The notes beneath the pieces were generated by a model. It worked only from the letters and a program-made list of their open reading frames with translations. It had not been told where the DNA came from and did not search any database. A stretch of DNA of 63,936 nucleotides from a virus (lineage: Duplodnaviria; Caudoviricetes): the IMG/VR virus record IMGVR_UViG_3300042541_000539, positions 1 through 63,936 of that record. One strand, written 5' to 3'. Position numbers and translations under genes: made by a program. Shown here in pieces: positions 681 to 62,609 of the stretch (its first letter is position 1; each line of letters starts with the position of its first letter).

Positions 681-754
681 TAGTCAGGACAGGATTCGAA
701 CCTGCATTGATGGCGTCGTATTGCTTCCACCTGTTACCATTACATTACCTGACC
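681..754 (-). ncRNA. tRNA-like RNA with aberrant anticodon arm
   Basis: Acceptor GGTCAGG/CCTGACT, D-loop AATGGTA, T-arm GCAGG-TTCGAAT-CCTGT; the anticodon arm is GGTGG/CCATC with a 13-nt loop. Confidence 0.7.
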
Positions 755-2813: not shown

Positions 2814-3044
2814 TTATTTGTTATCGTTATATATTAATTGTTGTAATTCACCGGTTAGTTTGACAGTACCTACTGTTTTGCCGAAGTCTTTGACTGTGAT
2901 TGAATCATCAGTTACCGTAATTTGATATTCGGTTGGATCTACTTGGACTGATCGCTGGCCTAAACTATAGCAACCTAAGCCTACTAATGTTACAGCACCG
3001 GTGATCATAATACTTAATGCTACTGCGGTTAAATTTTCTTTCAT
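2814..3044 (-). CDS. small membrane-anchored early protein
   Basis: N-terminal hydrophobic helix LTAVALSIMITGAVTLVGLGC. Confidence 0.7.
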   Translation of the reverse strand: MKENLTAVALSIMITGAVTLVGLGCYSLGQRSVQVDPTEYQITVTDDSITVKDFGKTVGTVKLTGELQQLIYNDNK

Positions 3045-3061
3045 ATTGTTTGTTTTACATT

Positions 3062-3097
3062 TATATTATCATTTGATCGTCGTATTCGTTTTGTAAG
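3062..3097 (-). promoter_or_regulatory. early promoter motif
   Basis: tatattatca-N8-tcgt-N8-tgtaag. Confidence 0.8.
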
Positions 3098-3147
3098 CGT
3101 ATAGCAACGCTAACAATGATTACAGCGTGTTGAGGTTAACCTAAAGC

Positions 3148-3519
3148 CTACTTTTCAGTAGACTCTAGATTTTCAACCTGAGCCAAATGTCTTACGTTAC
3201 TTGGCATATCAGTTGATTGTGACCAGTACTCTCTTTTAATCCAACATGGCATTATAGATAACTTTGGTAACATTACTTTCAAGACTTCATCATGATTGTA
3301 AGTAATTCGTTGATTCTTATTGTTCACGAATGTTATAACTTGATTACGACCTAACCAAGATTTTCTTACTACAAAGTTCGCTCGTTCGATCTTTGGATAG
3401 ATTGCGGCCAAGTCTTCTGGACTTAGTTTAGCGATTGCTTCGGCAATTAATTCTTTAGAAGATTTTACTACTTCTACAACTTCTACTTCTACTACTTTAA
3501 TTTCATTTACTTTTTTCAT
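3148..3519 (-). CDS. hypothetical early protein preceded by tandem promoters
   Basis: 123-aa ORF. Confidence 0.8.
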   Translation of the reverse strand: MKKVNEIKVVEVEVVEVVKSSKELIAEAIAKLSPEDLAAIYPKIERANFVVRKSWLGRNQVITFVNNKNQRITYNHDEVLKVMLPKLSIMPCWIKREYWSQSTDMPSNVRHLAQVENLESTEK

Positions 3520-33106: not shown

Positions 33107-34804
33107 ATGGCAGCAACTATAGAAGTAAAGTATTTTAATTCATATTGGCTAAAAAAAATAGGATCGGTACAATCGGCTACGGAATATATTACTAAAGGAG
33201 CAGTTGCGGCAGGGCCTGTAACAAATCCAAGCGCTGGTGATACCTGGAAATTTACATTTTTAGCAGGTGAAAACTTCTTTACATATTATAAAGAACCTAC
33301 CGATGAATACCCCACTCCTATAGACTTAATAGGCCCCGGTCAAAAGTTTTCTTATACATATCCAGTCGTGGGAGGTGACTTATATGAATATATTATTATA
33401 GGTTATGAAACAGTGGTTGTAGACGAAGAATATAGGATATATTTAAACAAGGATATATACTCTGTTGACTTTAACATTGATCCACTAGGAGACCCGCCGT
33501 TATTCACATCTCTTACTTTTGGCAGGATTATAGATTTTAATTATGTACCAGGAGATGCTCAATATATAAATGGAAATCAAGATTGGTTTATAGAAGAATC
33601 TAGGATACGTGGAGGATATAATAATGTATCAACTGATTTAGGTGTTCGTGCTTTTGTAGTAGATGATAATCCTAATAGACAACGAAGACAAAACGCTCTT
33701 ATTTATTCAGGCATATTCAATTCAAGAACAGGTATAAATGATACAAATCAATTCTCTGTTGGAGAAGATATAACCAAAAGCGTGGATCCTTCTCAAGGTT
33801 CAATACAAAAATTATATGCTGAGGACACAAACCTTATTATATTCCAAGAGAATAAAGTTAGTAGAGCATTGATAGATAAAAGCGCCGTATATTCAGCAGA
33901 GGGTGAAGCGTTGACAACATCTGGTATGCAAGTTATAGGACAAATACAATCGTATGCAGGTAATTATGGCATCGGAACAAATCCTGAAAGCTTTGCAACA
34001 TTTGGTTATAGAAAATACTTTGTAGATAGGCCACAGAATGCTGTATTAAGACTATCACAAGATGGTATTACAGAAATATCAAATACAGGAATGCTGGATT
34101 ACTTTAGAGATAATTTAGGAGCAATTGGAGACAATGGAAAAGTTCTTGGTTCTTGGGACATGCATAATAAACAATACGTTGTTTCTATGCAGCCCGCATT
34201 AACTCTTAATGCATCACGTCCATCGGATCCTGGATTTGTAAATACTTTTGAAACATTAGTATTTGACGAGGATAGTCTTGGATGGACAAGTAGATTTTCT
34301 TTTAGGCCTGACAATGGTTTTAGTTTGCTAGGTAATTATTATACAGCGGCTAATGGTAATTTGTGGAAACATTATTCTTTCAATGTGCCTAGGTGTAATT
34401 TTTACGGTTCACGATATACTTCTACAGTTACATTGGTATTTAATGGCGAACCATCATTAGCAAAGACGTTTCAAACAATAAACTACGAAGGATCAGCAGG
34501 ATGGGAGTTATCAGAAATATATACCGACACAAGTGTTGGAGCACGTATAACACAATCCGTAGTGCCTTTAGGATTAACAGCGTTGCAGGATCAATTGTTT
34601 TCAAACAACTTTAAAGTTAAAGAGAATAAATATTTTGGTAATATACTTAATATAACACCCGTTTCAGATGGAACAATAGTATACGGACAATCAATGTCTG
34701 GTATTAATGGGTTTTATGCTACTGGTACTTTTGTAAGTACATCAGGTAGTCCTAGGCTTTTATTTGCGGCTTCGTCTACATTTACAATATCTTTAAACAA
34801 TTAA
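33107..34804 (+). CDS. tail muzzle/stabilisation protein, C-terminal part
   Basis: GSIQKL, LIIFQENKV, YGIGTNPESF, VLRLSQDGITEIS beta-propeller motifs. Confidence 0.75.
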   Translation: MAATIEVKYFNSYWLKKIGSVQSATEYITKGAVAAGPVTNPSAGDTWKFTFLAGENFFTYYKEPTDEYPTPIDLIGPGQKFSYTYPVVGGDLYEYIIIGYETVVVDEEYRIYLNKDIYSVDFNIDPLGDPPLFTSLTFGRIIDFNYVPGDAQYINGNQDWFIEESRIRGGYNNVSTDLGVRAFVVDDNPNRQRRQNALIYSGIFNSRTGINDTNQFSVGEDITKSVDPSQGSIQKLYAEDTNLIIFQENKVSRALIDKSAVYSAEGEALTTSGMQVIGQIQSYAGNYGIGTNPESFATFGYRKYFVDRPQNAVLRLSQDGITEISNTGMLDYFRDNLGAIGDNGKVLGSWDMHNKQYVVSMQPALTLNASRPSDPGFVNTFETLVFDEDSLGWTSRFSFRPDNGFSLLGNYYTAANGNLWKHYSFNVPRCNFYGSRYTSTVTLVFNGEPSLAKTFQTINYEGSAGWELSEIYTDTSVGARITQSVVPLGLTALQDQLFSNNFKVKENKYFGNILNITPVSDGTIVYGQSMSGINGFYATGTFVSTSGSPRLLFAASSTFTISLNN

Positions 34805-37610: not shown

Positions 37611-40600
37611 ATGCTAGAATACGAATTAAACGGTAAAATATATACAGAACAGGACTTAATTAATGCAGCCGGAGGTAAAGACAAACTTCCGGCTTACATT
37701 AAAAGCAAAGGATATAAAGTAGCTAATAAGAAAACTACTGATTTTTCAGAGATTAATAAGGCTAAAAATAAAAAAATTGCTATAATACCTGGTGTTAATG
37801 ATTTTGGAGCAGAAATCGATAACAAATTAAAGCCTTTTAATTTTAAGGAGGTAAGCCAAGGCAAAGAATATAAAGCAATTGATGTTGCAAAAGATAAAGT
37901 AAAAAAAGAAAAGCAACAACCTGTTACTAGATTGCGAAATGAAGTATTAGATCTTGATGGCAAAAAAGCAAAAGAAGAAGATTCAGGATTTGTAAATTAT
38001 CTTAAGGAAAGTTTTGATTCTACTGTCTCTACAATTACGCAATCTTTTTATAAAGCACCTGAATTTGCTTACGATATAGCTGCTTCCATTACAAATCCTA
38101 TTGCTAAAGCAATTGGCAAAGCAACAGGCACAGAAGTCAAAGAGGCTTCCTCCGAACGCATAATGGAAACTTTTGGCATTAAAAATATCCCTGCCGAAAT
38201 TTTACAAAAAAGAATAAATGAATCAAATAAAGTAATAAAAGAATATAGTGATAAAAACGGAGCAGATCCGTTAACAGCAATAGAAAACGGTAATTACTTA
38301 GGGGCTGCAAAATTAGTTGCTGGTGGAACAGTGCAATCAGCGCCGTGGATGGCGGCAGCTATATTAAGTGGAGGTAGTTCTACAGCCATGACTGCTATTG
38401 CGGCTTCAACAGCGGTATCAAAGGCTGAACAATTAAAAATAGAAAATCCAGAAATGGATGTGCAAGATAGAACAACAAATGCTATTGTGTCTGGAGCTTT
38501 GGAAGGATACCTAGGCCAATTATTTACTGGAGCGTCGGGAGCAGTTGTAAAAAGAATAATTGCGGATAAAGGAGCAAAAGCTGGATCTAAAATTATTTCT
38601 AATGGATTAATGGGGACCCTTGAAAAAGCAATTGAAAAAAGCCCTATGATTGGTGTTATAGGCGAAATGGCTGAAGAAGGAGGGGTTGAATTAGGTAATC
38701 AGCTAAACGACATGAATTCTGGTCTTAGAAAGGAATTAGATTACAGACAAATAACAAATGCAGGTATTATAGCTACAGGAATGGCCGGGACAAATACAGT
38801 CCCTGTATACGCTGCTAAAGGCTATATGAAAGCCGTAGAATATAATGAAGTAAAAAAAGTAAACAAAGAAATAAATTCACTTACAATCCAATTGTCTAAT
38901 CCTTATATAAAGGATTCAGATAAAAAAATAATTTCCGCACGAGTTAATAGACTTGTTACGGAAAATAAAGCAATTGTCGGTAGTAGTTTAGAAAAAATTA
39001 GCGCTTTACCAGAAAGTGTAAAAACAGAACTTAATGTTTTAAATTCTGGATTAGATGATTTAAAAAGTAAATATTTAGAATTAAGTGACGACACTGATTT
39101 ACCTATTGATATTAAAAAAGCCATGGGGAGCGAATTAATTTTGCAGGCTAAAGAAATACAAGATAGAAAAACAAGTATCATTGAAGGCAATTACATATAC
39201 GAAGATTTTAAAAAATTACCAGAAGCCGAACAGGACAGGATTAAATTATTAGCTAATGAAACATTAGTAGCAAATTCTGAATTAACAGATGATCCTAAAA
39301 CAAAGTTTAATGAGGATGAGATAAAAAGAGAGGCTGTTAATATCTACAATACTGAATTAAGAACTAAAGACCTTAATGCAGATATAGAACGCACTAAACA
39401 GGCTGTACAGGCTATAGGTTTAGGCGAAGATATTGATATGCCTGAATTAAATACCGCAAATGACGTTATTGATTATTTATCTAGCAATACAAAATTAGAT
39501 GAAAACACTATAGAGGATATAGCTGATTCTTATGGGGCTTTTATACCGTTAGATAATGGCAAAGAAGCATTGATAATAAATAAAGAAGCAGCTGGTATGG
39601 ACCAAGTTGTTACAACAGGACAGCATGAATTCTTACATAAACTTATATACAAAGCGGTTAAAGACAATGTATCATTGCAGAAGCAAATGGGGTCTCAATT
39701 ATATAACCATATTGAAAGTTATATTGGGACGGAAGCTTTTAATAATACGGAATTTAAAAATAGATACGATACCTATAAAAAAGATTTTGAAAATACAAAA
39801 GCAGAATTAGACAATAAAGTATTAAAAGCAAAAGACTTTTTTGAAAAAGGCAATATATCACAGGAAAGATATGCTCAAGCTATCGCAGAAGCCGATGAGG
39901 CTACGTCAAAAGCGGAAGGCAAATATTTAGAAGAAACATTACCATTATTATCTGAGTCTTTATCTAAGGGAGATATAAAATACGAAGAAACATTTTTTAC
40001 AAAGATAGGGGATATACTGCGTAAAGCCTTTCAAAAATACGGATTAAGTAAAGTAAAATTTGATACAGGTAAAGACGTGTTTAATTTTGTTAGAGACTAT
40101 AATAAGAGCTTTGAGAAAGGACAATTTACAAAAGCATTTAAAGCATTAGCAAAAGAAGGAACGTATAAAGGGTCTATTGCTAAAGGCAACGCTCCGGTTA
40201 GAACTACTACTAAAACTACTGTAAAGAAAAGTCAGCCATTGTCACAAGTTGAAACTTTAAAGAAACAACTTAAAGATATTCAAGATAATGAATTTGATTA
40301 TGATCCTGATGATTTTGATCAGCAAATTGACAATTTAAAAAACAAAATTAAAAAAGCAATTGAAAAAGAAAAAACAGCGCCTGTAGTTGAAATTAAAAAG
40401 GAAGTTTCAGAAGAAGACGCAGACAAAGAAATAATAAAAAATGAAAGATCATCATTATCTTCTGACAAAGTACAAAAAATATATGATGATAAAGGTGTAA
40501 ATGGTGCTCAGGATATTATAGATTTATTTAAACCTATCACAAAAAAATTAGTAAATAGGAGAATGGATGCTCCTGGTTTTGATAGAGAATTATTAACCGA

Positions 40601-43600
40601 TGAGATTGAAACAGGCTCCGGCGGTATTTTAGATTTAATAACTAAATATAAACCCGATAGTGGAATACCTTTAGCTGCATTTATTAATAAATATTTGCCT
40701 GTTAGAGCCATAGCGGCTTCAAGGAGAGTATTGGATAAAGCTTTTAGTAAAGATGTAACAGAAGAGAAAGGTCTAATGGCTGAAGAAACTGTCTCAGAAG
40801 TAAAAGAAAAACCAAAATATAAAAACGCATTAGAAGCAAATGTTTTTGAGCCAGGAGCGCTAGAAGCGGCCCAAAACAAGATCTTAACTGTTGTAAGAAC
40901 ATTGAAATCTAAAATAGACGAGCCTATAAGTTTAAATCGTACTGTTACACCTATAATAGCTGAGATTAGAGACGAGATTGGTAGGCAATTAGATATTGAT
41001 CTTAAAACCATTATGGGAGGCAAGAAAGATGATCAATTAAAAAAATGGTTGGTAAAGAATAAGCGTTATGTATTGGAAAACATGACTACAACTTGGCTGA
41101 TGGGGAAAGATGGCCAAGGCGGTATTCCACAGGCTGTTCAAAAACAAGTTGATGGGAGATGGATTAACTACCCTGACTGGGTAGGTAAAAAAATAGATAG
41201 AGAAACTACATCAACAGATTTAGCGGGAAGAACATCAGGAGCTGAACTTGTTAGGAGGTTGCCTGGCGTAGCTAACAATGTTTCTGAAGCTGATTATCTT
41301 TCTCAAATATTAGAGCCAAGTGGTAACCCTATTAGGGGCAGAAAAGAATCTTTAGCAAAAGCAATTGCGGAAGAATCCGCGTTTGATATTATTAATAAAG
41401 ATTTTGAGGATAAAGGACCAATATTTGAAGCATTTAAAACAAATCAGGAAAGATTAGGGGCTTATTTAAACGATAGTGTTGTTAACGAATTTGCAAAGCA
41501 AGCAGAAAGAGGTAATATTAAATTTTCAGCAAAATTAATTAAAGGATTTGAGATTTCTCAAGATAAACTAGGTAAAGACATATTCAATGCTGAAACTATA
41601 GAAGATGAGATTGGAGCTATTAATAATTGGATTGCAAGTGACGGTAGATCATTAAGAACTTTAGCTTGGACAATAGGTAAAGGATTAAAAAAATTCACTA
41701 CAAACAAAGGATTGTTTGAGAACATAATATTACCAATAATTAAAACTTATTCCAAATTTGAAGGTATAGTAGGGGAAGATTCTTATAGATTAGAAGACAC
41801 TAAAAAAGGCCAATCCATATATTTTGGTGAAGAAAAAGTTCCTTTATGGGCAGACACAACACTTATTAAAGCAGATTGGTCAAATTTTACAAATAAAATT
41901 GATACAGAATCAATTAAAGCAACGAATGATTTAATTGATGTTGTTAAATATTTTAAAGACAATAAACAAACTAAAGAAGATTTTGAGTCTTATCTAGCGT
42001 TCTTAAGATGGGATCAAAGAGGTTTGATTAGAAAAGTATCAAAGTCGGGGGTTGGCGTATTAGAGTTGAATAAAAAGCAAGAGGCAAGGCTCGAGCACAA
42101 TCCTCCGGTTCAAAGCATTGTTGAAAAAGTTACAGATTTATTTGACGGTAAAATTACAGAAAATGAATTTAGAGAATTTGTAGACAAAGCCAGAGTGAAT
42201 CTTGTGCCTAAAGCCGTAGAAGATATGTTACCCGAATATGAAGAAGGCAAAAACAGAATGCATGATTCAAAAGCGGTTTTATATTTACAAGACTTAATAG
42301 ATAAAGGATATAAAGTTACAGGTTTAGAAAAAGAATATGGCTCGAAAGCTAAATTTAATTCATTAGTAAAATTAGCAAAATCAGGAGTAACATCTAAAGA
42401 AAATATTCAGAACGGCAAGAATATAAACGCTGTTAATTCTTCTTTAACCGTTAAGTATTCTAAAACACCAAAAGGTATATCTGTTTTTGATTTTGATGAT
42501 ACGGTTGGGTTGACTAAAAGTAACGTGCTATACACAATGCCTGATGGAACCAACGGTAAATTAAATGCTGAAGAATTTGCTAAAGAAGGTGGTAAACTAA
42601 GCGCCGAAGGAGCTGTGTTTGATTTCTCTGAATTTAGCAAAGTAGTTAATGGCAAACCTGGGCCAATGGTTGAGAAAATGAAAAAGATGATTGGCAAGTT
42701 TGGTCCTGAAAATTTCTTTATATTAACAGCTCGCCCGGCAAACTCTGCAGGTCCAATCCATGAGTTCTTATCCTCAATAGGTATTGATATACCATTAGAG
42801 AACATAACAGGATTAGGTAATAGTGCAGCTCAAGCTAAAGCAGACTGGATAGTTGATAAAGCAGCCAATGGGTATAATGATTTTTACTTTGCTGATGACG
42901 CCCCGCAGAATGTTAAAGCGGTACAAGATGCATTAGACGTATTAGACGTTAAATCAAAAATACAGCAAGCTAGAATCAAGTTTAGTAAAACTATGTCTGA
43001 CGACTTCAATAAAATCATTGAAGAGAATACTGGCATGGAAGATTACAAAGTGTTTTCTGATATAACTGCTAAAAGAAGAGGAGCTAACAAAAACAAATTT
43101 GATTTTTATGTGCCGCCATCTGCTGCAGACTTTGAATTATTGCTTTACAAATTTATGGGTAAAGGCCCGAAAGGCGAGGAACAAAAACAATTCTTTGAGG
43201 AAGCATTGATAATACCTTATATAAACGGTGTTGATTTAATGGATGCTGCAAGACAGTCTATAAAAAGAAACTACAAAGAATTATTAAAAGCATTCCCCGA
43301 CGTTAAGAAAGAACTTGAAAAGCTAACGCCAAACAAAGACTTTACATATGATCAGGCTATGCGTGTTGCAATATGGAATCAGTTTGACACAGAAATACCT
43401 GGTTTATCTCAAAGAGATATAACGTATTTATCTGATCTAGTCAACAATGATCCGGAACTTGCTGCTTTTAAAGACGGATTAATAGTAATGGGTAGACAAG
43501 AAAAAGGTTGGTTACCACCAGATGATTTCTGGGATGCTACAACTATTATTTCAGACCTATATAATATCACAGAAGGCTCTGGTAGAAAAAAATTCTTAGG

Positions 43601-45227
43601 GGAGTTTATTGAAAATACCGAAAACATATTTGGTAAATTTGATAACGGCAGATTAGTTGGACCTAATATGAATAAAGTTGAAGCTGTTTACGGAACAAAC
43701 GTTAGAGAAGCATTGGAAGATTCTATATATAGAATGATCAATGGTAAAAACAGAAGCTACGGAGGTGATAAAGAAACAGCTGCGTGGAGTAGTTGGGTAA
43801 ATGGATCTACAGGAGCAATCATGTTCTTGAACACTCGTTCTGCTGCATTACAAATGTTAGGAGCTGTTAACTTCCTGAACTGGAGAGATAATAATCCATT
43901 CAATGCTGGTAAAGCGTTTTTGAACCAACCACAATACTGGAAAGATTTTGCTCGTATATGGAATTCTGACAAACTAAAAGAAAGACGTGGTGGATTAAGG
44001 GAGGATGTTGCTTCTGCCGAGATTGCAAATGCAGCGGCTAGTAGTAAAAACAAAGCTGTTGCAGTGACCTCGTATTTATTAAAAATAGGTTATACACCAA
44101 CACAACTTGCGGATAGTTTTGCTATTGCAATGGGGGGAGCGCCGTTCTATAGAAATAGAATTAATACTTATTTGAAAGAAGGACTTACAGAAGACGAGGC
44201 GGAATCAAAAGCGTGGGAAGAATTCTCAAAGGTGTCAGATGAAACACAACAATCAGGTGATCCAAAGGATATATCAAAACAACAATCGAGCGGCGCTGGT
44301 AGACTTTTATTAGTATTCCAAAACTTTACAATGCAGCAATCCCGAATCGTTAAAAAAGCCGCCTTGGATCTTAAGAATAGAAGAGGCGATGATAAAACTA
44401 ATATATCTAAAATAGTTTATTATCTAGCAGTGCAAAACATAATGTTCTCCACGTTACAACAAGGTTTGTTTGCTGTTTTATTTGATGATGACGAAGAAGA
44501 AGAGAAAAAAGATAAAAAGAAAAAAACAAGACAAGAAGCCGCTATTGATGTTGGAAATGGAGTATTCGACAGTATACTTAGAGGCACTGGATTTGTTGGT
44601 GGTGTAATAGCTACATTAAAGAATACAGTTATTAAATACCTAGAAGAAAAAGAAAAGAAACAAAAAGCTGAATATGCTAAGGTTGTTCTTGAGGCAGCAA
44701 ATATGTCTCCTCCAATTGGATCTAAATTAAGAAAAATATATAGTTCATTACAACAAACTAAATATGATAAAGACTTAATAGAAGCAAGAGGTTGGGGAGT
44801 AATGCAAGACGGCAGAGTTCACTTAGGCCCTATGTATTCTGTATCCGGAAAACTTGTTGAGGTTGGTGCTAATTTTCCTATGGATAGATTAGTAAATAAG
44901 GTAGAGAATCTTTCGCAAGCATTTAATGCAGAAAATACTGCAGTACAAAGATTAGCTACAGGACTTGGTTATTCGCCTTGGACAGTTGGAATTGAAGGCC
45001 CTAAAGGAGACTTGCTTATAAAAGCCGGCGCTAAAGAAAAGCGTAAAGAAGAAGGGGTGCTTAAAGCAATAAAAACTAGAAAAGAGAATAAAGAAAAACT
45101 GGAAGATAGTATCAAAGGCTTGTCAACCTATGAGCGAAGAGAATACAAAAGAAAAAAGCTTATAGAGAAAAGAGAGAAAAGAAAGAAAAGAATATTAATG
45201 GAAAGACAATTAAACGAGAACAGATAG
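37611..45227 (+). CDS. giant polyvalent virion protein (HExxH peptidase, sigma-region-2-like, HAD phosphatase domains)
   Basis: 2538 aa; QHEFLH, GILDLITKYKPDSGIPLAAFI, VFDFDDT...ILTAR...FADD. Confidence 0.75.
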   Translation: MLEYELNGKIYTEQDLINAAGGKDKLPAYIKSKGYKVANKKTTDFSEINKAKNKKIAIIPGVNDFGAEIDNKLKPFNFKEVSQGKEYKAIDVAKDKVKKEKQQPVTRLRNEVLDLDGKKAKEEDSGFVNYLKESFDSTVSTITQSFYKAPEFAYDIAASITNPIAKAIGKATGTEVKEASSERIMETFGIKNIPAEILQKRINESNKVIKEYSDKNGADPLTAIENGNYLGAAKLVAGGTVQSAPWMAAAILSGGSSTAMTAIAASTAVSKAEQLKIENPEMDVQDRTTNAIVSGALEGYLGQLFTGASGAVVKRIIADKGAKAGSKIISNGLMGTLEKAIEKSPMIGVIGEMAEEGGVELGNQLNDMNSGLRKELDYRQITNAGIIATGMAGTNTVPVYAAKGYMKAVEYNEVKKVNKEINSLTIQLSNPYIKDSDKKIISARVNRLVTENKAIVGSSLEKISALPESVKTELNVLNSGLDDLKSKYLELSDDTDLPIDIKKAMGSELILQAKEIQDRKTSIIEGNYIYEDFKKLPEAEQDRIKLLANETLVANSELTDDPKTKFNEDEIKREAVNIYNTELRTKDLNADIERTKQAVQAIGLGEDIDMPELNTANDVIDYLSSNTKLDENTIEDIADSYGAFIPLDNGKEALIINKEAAGMDQVVTTGQHEFLHKLIYKAVKDNVSLQKQMGSQLYNHIESYIGTEAFNNTEFKNRYDTYKKDFENTKAELDNKVLKAKDFFEKGNISQERYAQAIAEADEATSKAEGKYLEETLPLLSESLSKGDIKYEETFFTKIGDILRKAFQKYGLSKVKFDTGKDVFNFVRDYNKSFEKGQFTKAFKALAKEGTYKGSIAKGNAPVRTTTKTTVKKSQPLSQVETLKKQLKDIQDNEFDYDPDDFDQQIDNLKNKIKKAIEKEKTAPVVEIKKEVSEEDADKEIIKNERSSLSSDKVQKIYDDKGVNGAQDIIDLFKPITKKLVNRRMDAPGFDRELLTDEIETGSGGILDLITKYKPDSGIPLAAFINKYLPVRAIAASRRVLDKAFSKDVTEEKGLMAEETVSEVKEKPKYKNALEANVFEPGALEAAQNKILTVVRTLKSKIDEPISLNRTVTPIIAEIRDEIGRQLDIDLKTIMGGKKDDQLKKWLVKNKRYVLENMTTTWLMGKDGQGGIPQAVQKQVDGRWINYPDWVGKKIDRETTSTDLAGRTSGAELVRRLPGVANNVSEADYLSQILEPSGNPIRGRKESLAKAIAEESAFDIINKDFEDKGPIFEAFKTNQERLGAYLNDSVVNEFAKQAERGNIKFSAKLIKGFEISQDKLGKDIFNAETIEDEIGAINNWIASDGRSLRTLAWTIGKGLKKFTTNKGLFENIILPIIKTYSKFEGIVGEDSYRLEDTKKGQSIYFGEEKVPLWADTTLIKADWSNFTNKIDTESIKATNDLIDVVKYFKDNKQTKEDFESYLAFLRWDQRGLIRKVSKSGVGVLELNKKQEARLEHNPPVQSIVEKVTDLFDGKITENEFREFVDKARVNLVPKAVEDMLPEYEEGKNRMHDSKAVLYLQDLIDKGYKVTGLEKEYGSKAKFNSLVKLAKSGVTSKENIQNGKNINAVNSSLTVKYSKTPKGISVFDFDDTVGLTKSNVLYTMPDGTNGKLNAEEFAKEGGKLSAEGAVFDFSEFSKVVNGKPGPMVEKMKKMIGKFGPENFFILTARPANSAGPIHEFLSSIGIDIPLENITGLGNSAAQAKADWIVDKAANGYNDFYFADDAPQNVKAVQDALDVLDVKSKIQQARIKFSKTMSDDFNKIIEENTGMEDYKVFSDITAKRRGANKNKFDFYVPPSAADFELLLYKFMGKGPKGEEQKQFFEEALIIPYINGVDLMDAARQSIKRNYKELLKAFPDVKKELEKLTPNKDFTYDQAMRVAIWNQFDTEIPGLSQRDITYLSDLVNNDPELAAFKDGLIVMGRQEKGWLPPDDFWDATTIISDLYNITEGSGRKKFLGEFIENTENIFGKFDNGRLVGPNMNKVEAVYGTNVREALEDSIYRMINGKNRSYGGDKETAAWSSWVNGSTGAIMFLNTRSAALQMLGAVNFLNWRDNNPFNAGKAFLNQPQYWKDFARIWNSDKLKERRGGLREDVASAEIANAAASSKNKAVAVTSYLLKIGYTPTQLADSFAIAMGGAPFYRNRINTYLKEGLTEDEAESKAWEEFSKVSDETQQSGDPKDISKQQSSGAGRLLLVFQNFTMQQSRIVKKAALDLKNRRGDDKTNISKIVYYLAVQNIMFSTLQQGLFAVLFDDDEEEEKKDKKKKTRQEAAIDVGNGVFDSILRGTGFVGGVIATLKNTVIKYLEEKEKKQKAEYAKVVLEAANMSPPIGSKLRKIYSSLQQTKYDKDLIEARGWGVMQDGRVHLGPMYSVSGKLVEVGANFPMDRLVNKVENLSQAFNAENTAVQRLATGLGYSPWTVGIEGPKGDLLIKAGAKEKRKEEGVLKAIKTRKENKEKLEDSIKGLSTYERREYKRKKLIEKREKRKKRILMERQLNENR

Positions 45228-56867: not shown

Positions 56868-57650
56868 CTATAGGTAATCAAAGACTTGAGAGGGGTCTAC
56901 ACTATTGATTAATGTTTGTATTGCTTGCTTTTTTATCTCTGAAATTCTAACATAAGAGCTTGCTCCTTCAAGACCTAGATAGTCTGCTATTTCATTTGCG
57001 GAATGTTTGCCACAATCTAATCCGTAACTTAATCGTAACACATCGGATTCTGTAACTGTTAAATATTTCTGAAACAAACTTAATAAATAAGCATTCATAA
57101 TATCTATATTGTACTCTTTAGATTTATCTTCAAAAATATTGCTCTCAAAATAAGTTGTTCCATCAAAGAAGTTAGTATCGGAACTATCAAAATCTACATC
57201 TAAACTTTGAAATACGCTATTAAAGAACATTTCTACCATTTTAGTATTATCAGGATCTTTACGCATCTCAGTTAACTTATACTCTGGAATACGTATACTA
57301 CCCCTGTTAATGTCTATTGCTCGTCTAATAGCGCCTTTAATTCTTTTAGATAGGAATGATTTTAATGTTGATTCTTGATTATCACTGTCTTTAATTGTAT
57401 CCCATTCTATTTTATCAATTGCTTGAACAAGACCTATTGAGCCATATTGTGTAAGATCTGTAATATCTAGAACCCCACATGCTTGTGTAGTAGTAGAAAA
57501 CTTTCTAGCAATATTCTCGACTAACGGCAGGAATTTAACAATTAGCTTATCTCTAGAATATGAACGAAAGTCATTTGATACACTATCTTTATTTGATTCT
57601 TTAACGTCTTCTTTGTACCTTATGTAATTGGGTAGATTGTAACTTTTCAT
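56868..57650 (-). CDS. sigma-70-family sigma factor
   Basis: LPLVENIARKF, DLTQYGSIGL, RIKGAI, IRIP, region-4 HTH ANEIADYLG. Confidence 0.88.
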   Translation of the reverse strand: MKSYNLPNYIRYKEDVKESNKDSVSNDFRSYSRDKLIVKFLPLVENIARKFSTTTQACGVLDITDLTQYGSIGLVQAIDKIEWDTIKDSDNQESTLKSFLSKRIKGAIRRAIDINRGSIRIPEYKLTEMRKDPDNTKMVEMFFNSVFQSLDVDFDSSDTNFFDGTTYFESNIFEDKSKEYNIDIMNAYLLSLFQKYLTVTESDVLRLSYGLDCGKHSANEIADYLGLEGASSYVRISEIKKQAIQTLINSVDPSQVFDYL

Positions 57651-60452: not shown

Positions 60453-61034
60453 TTAAAAATTGTTTTTTACTGAATTCCATATAATTGCTTGATACTCAAA
60501 ACCTTTTAAGCCTTTAGCTTCTGCTTTGGCTATGGTTAATAATCTAATTTGATCGTATGCACGTCTACCCGGAGAACTTTTAATTGTTTTACCAAAGCAT
60601 GCACGCAAATGCCACACGTCAATTGTAACGTTGCTTTCATCTAAGTGGGCAATGTTTTTTACAAAGTTAAATGTTTTTAAGCTATCATCAGTTATTTTAG
60701 CTTGTTTTTTACCTAATAAGAACGCTTTGCGCTTATTTTTATGGAACGTACAAACTTTAACATCATCAGGCGAACGATTTTCGTGTATAGCACCTAATAC
60801 CGTTACGGTATCTTTGATGTTTTGGGGCCATTTGTTTCGTGGTGACAATGCACTAATAATACTTGCAACAACTTCCGTTGTAGTATTGTATTGCTTAGCT
60901 AGATCCTTACAAATATAATGCGCTTGCTTATACCATGCGATACCATTGTCAATGTCTCGGTCAGTGGCTAACGCAAAGTAATTGTCTAGATTATTGTTTA
61001 CCTCTATTAATTGATCGTCTGTTAATTGTTTCAT
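60453..61034 (-). CDS. HhH-GPD glycosylase-like protein
   Basis: AWY...ALSPRNKW..N...KTFNF...VTIDVW...QAIIW. Confidence 0.55.
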   Translation of the reverse strand: MKQLTDDQLIEVNNNLDNYFALATDRDIDNGIAWYKQAHYICKDLAKQYNTTTEVVASIISALSPRNKWPQNIKDTVTVLGAIHENRSPDDVKVCTFHKNKRKAFLLGKKQAKITDDSLKTFNFVKNIAHLDESNVTIDVWHLRACFGKTIKSSPGRRAYDQIRLLTIAKAEAKGLKGFEYQAIIWNSVKNNF

Positions 61035-61051
61035 AGTTGTTGTTTTACAAT

Positions 61052-61087
61052 TATATTATCATTATTTAATCGTGTTTAGACCGTAAG
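61052..61087 (-). promoter_or_regulatory. early promoter motif
   Basis: tatattatca-N8-tcgt-N8-cgtaag. Confidence 0.8.
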
Positions 61088-61202
61088 CAATTAATTTTTT
61101 ATTGTGCTTATGTAAACGATTACCTTCACATACTGGGCATCCGCCATTATTTCTGCAATACTTGGCTACCACTTTTTTTGCTTTTTTAATTGTTCTACTC
61201 AT
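61062..61202 (-). CDS. 46-aa basic Cys/His peptide (not in the ORF track)
   Basis: MSRTIKKAKKVVAKYCRNNGGCPVCEGNRLHKHNKK... Confidence 0.65.
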   Translation of the reverse strand: MSRTIKKAKKVVAKYCRNNGGCPVCEGNRLHKHNKKLIAYGLNTIK

Positions 61203-61216
61203 AATGTTTAATTTAG

Positions 61217-61282
61217 TAGTCAGGTAAGGACTCGAACCTTATCCGCTTTATCAGTGCGGTGCTTCCATTCAGCTACCTGACT
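61217..61282 (-). tRNA. truncated tRNA-Ile(GAT)-like RNA, 66 nt
   Basis: AGTCAGG/CCTGACT acceptor, loop CTGATAA, T-arm TAAGG-TTCGAGT-CCTTA; 1-nt variable region. Confidence 0.65.
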
Positions 61283-61320
61283 TATAATTAAATTTTTCAA
61301 AGTTACTGACTAATCTTGTA

Positions 61321-61560
61321 TTGCTACTATAGTAACGGACTTTATTAATTTAACTACTTGCTGAGAACTCATTTGTGTTGTGTGGAGATTAAACTTACCC
61401 TACAAGTAGTCTTTAATTTTCCCACCTACCAAACTCTATTCCTTTCTCAAGGGAACAACACATCTACCATTACTGATAGTATCTTTATGTAAACAGACTA
61501 CTATAGCCAAGTCTTTTAACGCAGACCTCATTAAGGCAGGCTTTTTGTTTACAAAGGTAT
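61321..61560 (-). ncRNA. candidate structured ncRNA (RNA-C) with a double pseudoknot
   Basis: TGTGTTG/CAACACA, TGAGAA/TTCTCA, ACTACTTG/CAAGTAGT and GTAAACA/TGTTTAC pairings. Confidence 0.6.
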
Positions 61561-61577
61561 TCAATGTTTAACCTTGT

Positions 61578-61637
61578 TGGAACTAGAGGGGGATTCGAAC
61601 CCCCTTAACCCGTCGGCCGCTTGCCCAGCGCTAGTTC
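61578..61637 (-). ncRNA. mini tRNA-like element (about 60 nt)
   Basis: GAACTAG/CTAGTTC, CGCT/AGCG, GGGGG-TTCGAAT-CCCCC; vestigial anticodon arm. Confidence 0.7.
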
Positions 61638-61640
61638 TTA

Positions 61641-61925
61641 GTTGATCCGCAAGCCGGTTACTACTTTATTTGCGTTTCGATTACAACCAACCATCACTGC
61701 TTGGACAATGTTTACGTAATCCCGAAATAATCAACATGCTGCTGTGTCTTTTAATTCTGCCGCAGCGTGTGCAAGAACCGACCGGGGACGCCCCGATCCC
61801 ATTAACCATTTGCTCCCAGGAATGCCTGCCCGCTTTGTTACCTGCTAGCTTAGGCGCGTTCTTCGTCTCAAATGGGTTTGCCACTTCTCGTTTAGCTTTA
61901 ACGAGCAATCACGCCGTGGCTCGCT
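61641..61925 (-). ncRNA. candidate GC-rich structured ncRNA (RNA-B)
   Basis: Visibly GC-richer than the genome; GCCAC/GTGGC, CCATTTG/CAAATGG, GATCGGGG/CCCCGGTC, GATTAC/GTAATC, GTTGAT/ATCAAC. Confidence 0.6.
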
Positions 61926-61940
61926 GTTTTGTGTATAGCA

Positions 61941-62165
61941 CTACGCTTTCTTGAATCGATAGAAAGCTAAAACGTATTTGTTAAGGAATTTACCTTTAGA
62001 TGGCGCTTCACGTAAACCATTCATTACATGGTTAGGCACGTTAAAGTACTCATACTCTCTGCCGTTCTTAAATAGAACAAACAATTTTTCTACGTTTGGA
62101 TAGTAAGACACTTCTGAAATAGCACTACTGTCAACCTCTAATTTCTCGATTAGATTTACATTCAT
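61941..62165 (-). CDS. KTSC domain protein
   Basis: SSAISEVSY...LFVLFKNGREYEYFNVP...APSKGKFLN. Confidence 0.88.
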   Translation of the reverse strand: MNVNLIEKLEVDSSAISEVSYYPNVEKLFVLFKNGREYEYFNVPNHVMNGLREAPSKGKFLNKYVLAFYRFKKA

Positions 62166-62171
62166 ATATAA

Positions 62172-62609
62172 TTAATTTAATTGGTTACTTACTAATTGTC
62201 TAGCAGCCTGTTTAGCGTACTCTGATTTCTGCGCTTCAGTACCCGCTGTTTGTGGCGAAGGTAAATATATATTACGTTCATTGTTACAATCATAGATACA
62301 CTTTTGATTGTTAATAATGCCGGTATAAATAGCACGTTCAAGATCTTGTAGGTGTACAGATACGTCTAAGTAAACAATATCGTTATTTAGCCAGCCACCT
62401 AAGTATCTTGTTTCGCCCCATAGATTATCCATGTTCTTAAGCATAAAGGCTTTAATGGTTTGATTAGATACTTTATTTACATTGAATTGTTCTTCAAAGC
62501 CTAGTATACTAACCATATAGCCATCGCTAGGGTTTGCTTTGCCAGTATTTAGATTATAACTTACACCGCCTTCTAAAATAATTTCGTCTAATACTTTCTT
62601 TAAGTTCAT
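62172..62609 (-). CDS. conserved phage protein, possible SAM-lyase-like fold
   Basis: GYMVS...LGGW...YLDVS...NNQKCIYD. Confidence 0.55.
   Translation of the reverse strand: MNLKKVLDEIILEGGVSYNLNTGKANPSDGYMVSILGFEEQFNVNKVSNQTIKAFMLKNMDNLWGETRYLGGWLNNDIVYLDVSVHLQDLERAIYTGIINNQKCIYDCNNERNIYLPSPQTAGTEAQKSEYAKQAARQLVSNQLN

Follow-up and report, generated by a model that had tools for sequence, protein, structure and literature searches.

Background

An uncultured virus of the Caudoviricetes (Duplodnaviria), known from IMG/VR record IMGVR_UViG_3300042541_000539, carries on the minus strand near the right end of this record a stretch of approximately 0.7 kb that is free of genes, raising the question of what such a stretch encodes and how its products might be made. 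Here we analyze this stretch, which we term the cassette, in the context of the complete record of 63,936 nucleotides (nt), referred to below as the window. Our results reveal two conserved folded RNAs in the cassette, both of which have a tRNA look-alike at their end. In the first unit, a G+C-rich structured RNA (RNA-B) appears to be joined, 3 nt upstream, to an anticodon-less mini-tRNA; the second (RNA-C) would be a copy of an RNA of the type found in Cellulophaga phage phi14:2, its terminal hairpin apparently exchanged for a compact tRNA-Ile-like domain. An initial annotation, made from the sequence alone, had listed these four elements on the minus strand, and all of them are present, with small changes in coordinates (Table 1).

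We favor, with moderate confidence, a reading in which the cassette is a co-transcribed row of portable folded non-coding RNA modules, with the tRNA-like elements defining the RNA ends. The comparisons below show conserved, structured RNAs and portable modules with borders at the tRNA-like ends; co-transcription, cleavage and stability of the RNAs are what we infer. RNase P and the enzymes that trim the 3′ ends of tRNAs require an acceptor stem stacked on a T arm. In the proposed mechanism, both tRNA-like elements would present such a stack, and host tRNA-processing enzymes would most likely cut the long transcript at these points, freeing stable RNAs and the downstream message. The same elements may also mark seams for the exchange of modules between phages. 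Our best guess, since tRNA and transfer-messenger RNA (tmRNA) genes occur in the same phage RNA islands, is that the released RNAs target the tRNA or translation apparatus of the host.

Table 1. Features of the cassette and of the genes on either side (window coordinates; bp, base pairs; aa, amino acids; ORF, open reading frame)
Feature	Position	Strand	Description and evidence
KTSC-domain gene, 74 aa	61941-62165	minus	Pfam PF13619, E = 1.6e-16; directly upstream of the cassette
RNA-B	61931-61641	minus	String of hairpin and pseudoknot modules M1-M4, predicted from sequence and comparison with 14 other loci
RNA-B module M1	61880-61920	minus	Nested hairpin, GCCAC/GUGGC enclosing CUCGUU/AACGAG
RNA-B module M2	61806-61875	minus	Closed by CCAUUUG/CAAAUGG; hairpin loop AA-GCUAGC-A (61849-61844)
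RNA-B module M3	61738-61798	minus	G+C-rich 8-bp hairpin (GAUCGGGG/CCCCGGUC) and GCUGC/GCAGC hairpin
RNA-B module M4	61641-61735	minus	Helix Px (GUUGAU/AUCAAC) enclosing helix Py (GAUUAC/GUAAUC) and an inner hairpin
Mini-tRNA, anticodon-less, 58 nt (G-1 to C73)	61580-61637	minus	Folds and alignment of 13 members
RNA-C	61283-61573	minus	Member of the phi14:2-type phage RNA family, blocks A to E intact
RNA-C 21-nt core block AAAUGAGUUCUCAGCAAGUAG	61354-61374	minus	Exact match in at least 80 viral contigs
9-nt direct repeat TTAAACATT	61563-61571 and 61203-61211	minus	Brackets the module of RNA-C and tRNA-like
tRNA-Ile(GAU)-like, 66 nt	61217-61282	minus	Rfam tRNA, 47.5 bits; acceptor AGUCAGG/CCUGACU
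Basic ORF, 46 aa, CxxC pair	61062-61202	minus	Begins 14 nt past the second tRNA-like

Results

RNA-B and the mini-tRNA form a conserved unit

A degenerate pattern for the core of the mini-tRNA retrieved 15 viral contigs of 33-68 kb, 14 of which carry the unit composed of RNA-B and mini-tRNA; the outlier among the 15, L097 (handles of this form denote fetched loci), was omitted from alignments. The closest relative (L085/L086, one contig) is collinear with the window across the KTSC gene, RNA-B and the mini-tRNA, at approximately 80% identity, and was the only contig found by exact searches with two stretches of window RNA-B. The unit has no match in Rfam 15, and blastn of RNA-B against the 80 loci of the RNA-C family described below returned none either.

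RNA-B had been placed at 61925-61641; a G+C-rich structured RNA is present there, with its start now extended upstream to lie right after the KTSC stop codon (61943-61941). In relatives RNA-B opens, directly past the stop of the upstream gene, with ...AUACACGG, which forms the 5′ side of an initial hairpin that occupies the position of M1 and is closed by ACACGG/CCGUGU, or by ACACAA/UUGUGU in L094. The closing helix of M2 becomes CAUCCG/CGGAUG in L096, and its inner hairpin changes from CAGG/CCUG to CCGG/CCGG in L098. The six-base palindrome in the M2 loop reads GCUAGC in two sequences and GUUAAC in the two loci just named, and on the thin evidence of these four sequences, the only ones with the module, it recalls the site of a kissing-loop dimer, the layout being similar to that of the HIV-1 dimerisation loop. 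A 15-letter degenerate pattern for M2 matched 58 viral loci; three of them, all already known, carry the module, giving four copies with the window, and the rest are chance matches. M3 is complete, partial or absent in relatives, and M4 is present in 13 of the 15 aligned sequences, the window counted, being absent from L088 and L094.

As far as aligned sequences can tell, this last domain of RNA-B is supported by compensatory changes. For the alignment of M4 and mini-tRNA (A4; 13 sequences, mean column identity 72%) we named the structure beforehand and then counted its pairs. Over all seven helices, 96.3% of cells are paired, versus at most 53.5% when partners are slid by 1-3 columns. Eight of the 31 pairs are changed on both sides (three in Px, four in Py and one in the acceptor stem), a number reached by 1 of 500 shuffles. 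An additional helix in M4, Pw (CCG...CGG), was dropped, with 74% of its cells paired and no covariation.

The tRNA mimic of approximately 60 nt that the initial annotation had seen 3 nt after RNA-B holds up. It starts 3 nt after M4 in the window and 3-4 nt past Px across members, and the minimum-energy folds of all 13 sequences share one miniature cloverleaf, with a D-like hairpin whose loop begins GGGC and is often enlarged by an insert, no variable region and a canonical T loop. A hairpin of 3-4 bp capped by GACG replaces the anticodon arm, making the mini-tRNA a tRNA-like domain without anticodon arm in each of the 13 folded members. In the window copy, the acceptor consists of six Watson-Crick pairs, the G-1:C73 pair and a C7-U66 mismatch; the D-like hairpin is short, the GACG hairpin has 3 bp and the T arm is GGGGG/CCCCC with loop UUCGAAU. 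All 13 mini-tRNAs have the G-1:C73 pair, one acceptor pair changes from A-U to G-C, and CCGACGGGUU is invariant as well, though partly forced by the search pattern. The end of the molecule could be read as a histidine-type G-1:C73 or as the end of an 8-bp stem, two possible readings that the sequences do not distinguish. In L022, a genuine phage tRNA-His likewise combines G-1 and C73 with the trailing CAA seen in the mini-tRNA, and the histidine reading is therefore possible, if unproven.

Rfam recognizes the T arm alone, through a local tmRNA match of 15.4 bits versus a gathering score of 47. This match (61588-61604) and some weak ones are all that a permissive scan of 61000-62200 adds to the tRNA match discussed below. 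ARAGORN does not match the mini-tRNA and makes no call anywhere in the whole window. Reading RNA-B and mini-tRNA together as a tmRNA, for which we sought a 5′ acceptor partner, a permuted layout and a tag frame, was rejected, with no ARAGORN call. A candidate tag frame (GCA...UAA) exists in the window and is shifted, open-ended or lost in relatives. The G3:U70 pair of alanine identity is absent: in 13 of 13 sequences, position 3:70 is C-G if numbered in the G-1 register and A-U if numbered in the 8-bp register.

RNA-C belongs to a widespread phage RNA family

RNA-C, initially delimited at 61560-61321, is present and longer than proposed. An nhmmer search with a profile of 26 family members aligns 61573-61341 with profile positions 1-193 of 287 (E = 3.6e-41); positions 194-287 are unmatched in the window, where a further helix and hairpin extend RNA-C to 61283. 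Blocks A to E are near letter-for-letter identical to the family consensus, and helices H3 and H4 and the D hairpin are likewise present. The 21-nt core is found exactly in at least 80 viral contigs of 5-306 kb, versus only two contigs of metagenome-assembled genomes (one genome per species, 185,579 species), and the family therefore appears to be essentially phage-borne.

Members of the family are 251-501 nt long and share a 5′ hairpin with loop UAAACAUUGA, a helix UGUAAAU/AUUUACA, a hairpin CUAUC/GGUAG and a helix GUGUUG/CAACAC. Also shared are the helix H6 (GUAGUUA/UAACUAC), a terminal irregular hairpin, H7 (ACCC.../...GGGU), followed by GCUAA, and a hairpin with loop CUUGAGAAA; the UGAGAA of this loop is complementary to UUCUCA in the core and can pair with it. 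RNAalifold finds compensatory changes in 13 of 27 predicted pairs among the 26 members.

The initial annotation had suggested an Rfam scan. At gathering thresholds this yields one match in the cassette, the tRNA listed in Table 1, leaving both RNA-C and the unit of RNA-B and mini-tRNA uncatalogued. The RNA-C family has no Rfam match at gathering score in 20 loci, nor at E up to 5 in seven full-length members. A weak match of the window to throat-1 RNA (17.9 bits, E = 0.041) is not repeated in those seven members and was set aside as chance. GOLLD (RF01998) and ROOL (RF03087) gave no match in the window at E up to 10 or in the seven full-length members at E up to 5, and the covariance models do not support membership in these, in throat-1 or in any other Rfam 15 family. 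We also considered blocks A and B as a promoter of the Bacteroidota type, for which the motif is TAnnTTTG, and rejected this idea: covariation shows both blocks to be helices, and some members have other letters in place of TTTG. The blocks belong to the RNA.

Among phage records, blastn matched 41 nt to Cellulophaga phage phi14:2, within a gap whose only annotations are three tiny ORFs on the reverse strand, and alignment shows that blocks A to E are shared with phi14:2 positions ~2912-3400. In a preprint, this crAss-like phage is described as producing an abundant long non-coding RNA from an intergenic junction (bioRxiv 10.1101/2020.03.07.982082, Drobysheva et al.). The family member of phi14:2 lies in one such intergenic gap, which would be one of the numbered junctions of that paper. 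Literature searches, which did not extend to the supplementary lists of Fremin et al. 2023 (PMC10690425), found no other description of the family.

A compact tRNA-Ile-like element ends RNA-C

The 66-nt element scores 47.5 bits against a gathering score of 29 for the Rfam tRNA model (RF00005), with a window-wide E of 4.9e-07. It has the anticodon loop CUGAUAA (GAU) and a perfect 7-bp acceptor and 5-bp T arm. Its dimensions are not those of a canonical cloverleaf, in which the variable region has 4-5 nt or forms a long arm, the D loop has at least 7 nt and the anticodon stem has 5 bp; here the variable region is 1 nt and the D loop ~5 nt, with an A-A mismatch at 31:39, and ARAGORN does not call the element. 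The initial description as a 66-nt tRNA-Ile-like RNA stands, but the element is compacted rather than truncated.

Helix H6 is kept in the window, where UAGUUAAAUU (61356-61347) pairs with AAUUUAAUUA (61294-61285) around a hairpin; two nucleotides past it the tRNA-Ile-like begins, followed by ACUAAAUUAAACAUU and a start codon. Missing from window RNA-C are the F block, hairpin H7 and the 3′ strand GGGUGCUAA, which is nearly invariant in the 26 aligned members. No F-like block is found in the window or in L023 (cut by the contig end), and a variant is present in L007. In L027, which lies on the L089 contig, the order of KTSC gene, RNA-B, mini-tRNA, family RNA and the same small ORF is conserved, and the family RNA is complete, ending in GGGUGCUAAAAAAAUUAAAUAUU and then AUG. 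These flanks are collinear with those of the window, and the tRNA-Ile-like therefore sits exactly at the position of H7, either through a true domain swap or through a deletion that fused the RNA to a following tRNA-like. In other phages, a tRNA-like of the AGUCAGG type stands directly after GGGUGCUAA. Judging from these arrangements, RNA-C may include the second tRNA-like as one of its own domains, in which case this element would not be a punctuation mark in its own right. The same 66-nt element occurs in L093 (Rfam, 45.9 bits), behind a remnant H6 hairpin and without blocks A to E, and, with two differences, in one contig from an RNA library.

Related tRNA-like scaffolds are widespread in phages (L003, L016, L046, L050, L052, L064, L077, L096 and others). 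They share the AGUCAGG/CCUGACU acceptor, a Leu-type D arm and the T arm, have very different middles, range from 66 to 130 nt and mostly receive no ARAGORN call. The acceptor type also recurs within the window at 681-754 (minus strand), in a second non-canonical tRNA-like with a GUCAGG/CCUGAC acceptor and T arm, an enlarged anticodon region and an Rfam tRNA score of 42.3 bits, again missed by ARAGORN. An intergenic motif that follows it (...CTAAACACGAT...TTGATAATA...) recurs after the RNA slot in L087, L090, L091, L094 and L098.

Module borders coincide with tRNA-like ends

The closest relative, L086, is without 61562-61217, that is, RNA-C and its tRNA-like, a module bracketed in the window by a 9-nt direct repeat. 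In both L086 and one 621-nt RNA-library contig, 61215 is joined to 61579. A further RNA-library contig is identical to the window over 61438-61574 and diverges beyond, another, covering 61577-61639, departs from it on the opposite side, and parts of all four elements occur in contigs from four freshwater or lake RNA-library studies. These data are assembled contigs that may include DNA, and they show module borders, not molecule ends; all 24 RNA runs had small shares (at most 0.14), and uncovered parts and summed depths were given no weight. The contig junctions at 61574-61579 and 61215 therefore place the module seams a few nucleotides after each tRNA-like.

The slot that follows the mini-tRNA varies among the 14 other loci. 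It is empty in five and taken by another spacer and gene in four, and the remaining loci have one arrangement each: a full RNA of the RNA-C family; an 'armless' module with a CUGAUAA loop, then a family RNA; an 'armless' module, then a 124-nt tRNA-like of the AGUCAGG type; a hairpin, then the tRNA-Ile-like as in the window; and another tRNA-like. The 'armless' module (AGCUAAGCUGUGUAAAGC...CUGAUAA...GAAGCU) is ~47 nt long, with an anticodon-arm-like hairpin and no T arm, and in most copies its 7-nt loop is that of the window tRNA-Ile-like. It lies upstream of family RNA in L004, L021/L035, L023, L024/L065, L045, L055 and L073, and after the mini-tRNA in L089 and L096.

In other phages, too, the RNA-C family is repeatedly flanked by tRNAs, tRNA-likes or tmRNA. 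The 3′ end of a tRNA-like directly precedes block A in at least 7 of 64 distinct upstream contexts, and a tRNA-like of the AGUCAGG type or the start of a tmRNA follows within 25 nt in 5 of 68 downstream contexts. ARAGORN lists a tmRNA near the family RNA in 14 of 80 loci, with two more detected by Rfam only. Phage tmRNA genes with long tags (e.g. ANAQIEANMNKVFSLL..EEVAVAA) lie just downstream of the family RNA in L004, L046, L055, L064, L068 and others, with ~4 nt between the two in L055; the family RNA of phi14:2 likewise has a tmRNA beside it.

Genomic context and coding potential

The window is an incomplete record (CheckV completeness estimate of 66). The genes from ~45.5 kb to its right end lie on the minus strand, and this block includes genes for ribonucleotide reductase, primase-helicase, thymidylate synthase, MazG, ERF recombinase and a sigma-70 region 2 protein; this leftward replication-gene block, which holds the cassette, is probably early. 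The sigma-70 region 2 protein (260 aa, 56868-57650, minus strand; Pfam E = 1.1e-05) may be a phage sigma factor. The plus-strand block includes genes for a GroEL-like chaperonin and for a protein with a crAss muzzle C-terminal domain (33107-34804), which together with a 2538-aa ORF (37611-45227) hints at kinship with crAss-like phages. The host of the phage probably belongs to the Bacteroidota.

The cassette has ~50% G+C, versus 30-35% in its flanks, between the KTSC gene and the 46-aa ORF. Of the 14 other loci, 8 have a KTSC homologue upstream of the unit and five have a homologue of a 145-aa gene there instead; in the remaining locus, L088, the fetched stretch begins inside the RNA and the upstream gene is out of view. 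RNA of the RNA-C family occurs in many phages without KTSC within the fetched stretches. The suggested partnership of the adjacent KTSC protein with the RNAs would be a matter of synteny, and is neither supported nor excluded. Downstream, homologues of the 46-aa ORF, which has no Pfam match, follow the RNA slot in 7 of the 14 loci and in L027.

The view of the region as non-coding structured RNA also withstands scrutiny. Two ORFs lie inside the cassette, of 75 aa (minus strand, 61681-61908) and 94 aa (plus strand). The former has no Pfam match and is broken in L086 by length differences of 2, 17 and 33 nt, and a protein-coding reading was rejected on these grounds; helices of the region show compensatory changes. 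Conserved blocks alternating with replaced hairpins are, at the sequence level, the pattern of a structured RNA and not of a gene. Single-sequence folding energies were uninformative (z = -0.02 for RNA-B with mini-tRNA, -1.10 for RNA-C). No terminator-like site was found within the cassette and promoter-like sites are at chance level; with the next ORF 14 nt away, a discrete RNA would therefore need excision from a longer transcript.

Discussion

Several observations weigh against a row of modules excised at tRNA-like elements. Processed 5′ and 3′ ends were not observed among the assembled RNA-library contigs, which cannot show ends. Most members of the RNA-C family have no adjacent tRNA-like, one standing directly upstream in about a quarter or fewer, and such flanks are therefore not required to make the RNA. 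The M4 helix ends 3 nt from G-1, a short single-stranded leader for RNase P, and the window copy of RNA-C may be inactive because the most invariant 3′ strand of the family, GGGUGCUAA, is missing. The idea of tRNA-like punctuation put forward in the initial annotation is accordingly kept in part: borders do lie at tRNA-like ends and no internal terminator intervenes, but in the RNA-C family the flanking tRNA-likes are optional. The patchy presence of modules among close relatives would also fit dispensable or decaying DNA. Taken further, the cassette would be a graveyard of RNA genes whose broken copies persist only as recent ones, a view that would accommodate the loss of the last third of the family model from window RNA-C, the L093 locus with its remnant hairpin and tRNA-like only, the lack of all of unit 2 in the closest relative and the non-canonical form of both tRNA-likes. 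We find it quite unlikely, given blocks A to E nearly identical to the family consensus, pairing in M4 and mini-tRNA kept by compensatory changes among 13 sequences of 72% mean column identity, and an odd 66-nt tRNA-like with a short variable region that is kept in a second phage and in an RNA-library contig. We give very little credit to the idea of a small-protein gene, for instance the 75-aa ORF, or of a purely cis-acting leader for the next gene. ORFs are available on both strands and the next one begins 14 nt past the cassette, but that of 75 aa is disrupted in L086 by length differences that are not multiples of three and matches nothing in Pfam, and the modules precede unrelated genes in unrelated phages.

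Other readings assign the tRNA-like parts an activity of their own. The mini-tRNA might be a working decoy of the tRNA-like domain (TLD) of tmRNA, binding host SmpB or another reader of the tRNA elbow and dampening ribosome rescue, with RNA-B as its carrier or as a second functional part. According to two articles, tmRNA is strongly inhibited by a TLD-like molecule, both when this molecule is chargeable with alanine and when it is not, and titration of SmpB may be the cause (PMC4131195, PMC11915505, citing Mao et al. 2009). The missing anticodon arm, the local match of the T arm to the tmRNA model, a CUGG...GAC-GGG pattern that by eye resembles the 5′ part of phage tmRNAs in the fetched loci, and the conservation of CCGACGGGUU and the D-like hairpin far beyond the needs of RNase P or RNase Z all speak for such a decoy. 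It nevertheless seems unlikely to us, with no G3:U70 pair, an acceptor sequence unlike the GGGG-type ends of tmRNAs, a tmRNA score far below the gathering score and a candidate upstream tag frame that is out of frame across relatives.

Also improbable, in our estimation, is the use of these parts as tRNAs or their stand-ins, the 66-nt element as a compact isoleucine tRNA or as a decoy or spare against a host anticodon nuclease, and the mini-tRNA charged with histidine through G-1:C73. The Rfam score and canonical 7-nt loop of the 66-nt element agree with this use, as does its possession of A73, C4-G69 and U12-A23, presumably identity elements of E. coli IleRS; in other phages, 'armless' modules next to family RNA have the same CUGAUAA loop, and the invariant G-1:C73 has its counterpart in the tRNA-His of L022. 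Against it stand the 1-nt variable region, the small D loop, the 31:39 mismatch and the rejection by ARAGORN, and, for the mini-tRNA, the lack of an anticodon and a G-1:C73 pair that cannot be told from an 8-bp acceptor stem. A doubtful extension of these ideas is that phages carry a kit of tRNA-shaped adaptors fused to ornate RNAs, acting as effectors and not as passively cut transcripts. One design within this doubtful scheme would be a chargeable, histidine-type, anticodon-less mimic tethered to a pseudoknot-rich RNA that pairs with itself through a palindromic loop; another, by analogy with GOLLD, would be a large phage RNA with interchangeable hairpin and tRNA domains. If true, such RNAs would dock on synthetases, EF-Tu, SmpB or the ribosome, redirecting translation or blunting tRNA-targeting defenses.

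Relation to known systems

A row of modules with tRNA-like ends can be compared with several known systems. Punctuation by tRNA-like elements is known from mitochondrial transcripts and from MALAT1/mascRNA, and two small stable RNAs lie in the tRNA cluster of phage T4. The cassette shares with these systems a tRNA-shaped element in a longer predicted transcript, a candidate site for RNase P and 3′ trimming, and differs in that an internal hairpin of RNA-C seems to have given way to the tRNA-like beside it. The phi14:2 RNA is of the same family as RNA-C (at least 80 viral contigs) and has blocks A to E in common with it, but it stands alone, whereas the window copy follows a mini-tRNA and has a tRNA-like in place of the F block, H7 and GGGUGCUAA. 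Mycobacteriophage DS6A reportedly carries a TLD-only (CDS-less, i.e. without coding sequence) tmRNA of ~60 nt with neither anticodon arm nor message (PMC4131195, PMC11915505). The mini-tRNA is likewise phage-encoded, anticodon-less and ~60 nt long, but has no G3:U70, a different acceptor stem and a conserved structured RNA 3 nt upstream. GOLLD and ROOL are large ornate RNAs of phages and prophages, of unknown function and often near tRNA islands, with tRNAs sometimes embedded in GOLLD (PMC12286853). The RNA-C family similarly comprises ornate phage RNAs near tRNAs, but these are smaller (251-501 nt) and have no Rfam match.

Conclusions

Relative to the literature and Rfam entries that we found, the family of RNA-B and mini-tRNA is new, as is the exchange of a hairpin for a tRNA-like in an RNA that is widespread and uncatalogued. 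Phage RNA islands still contain abundant, conserved RNAs without a known role, among them GOLLD, ROOL and two small stable RNAs from the tRNA cluster of T4. To these the cassette adds a comparative case for tRNA-shaped elements as the seams of a modular RNA system. To judge from the preprint on phi14:2, this cultured phage makes a member of the larger family abundantly, and the function of the family would therefore be directly testable.

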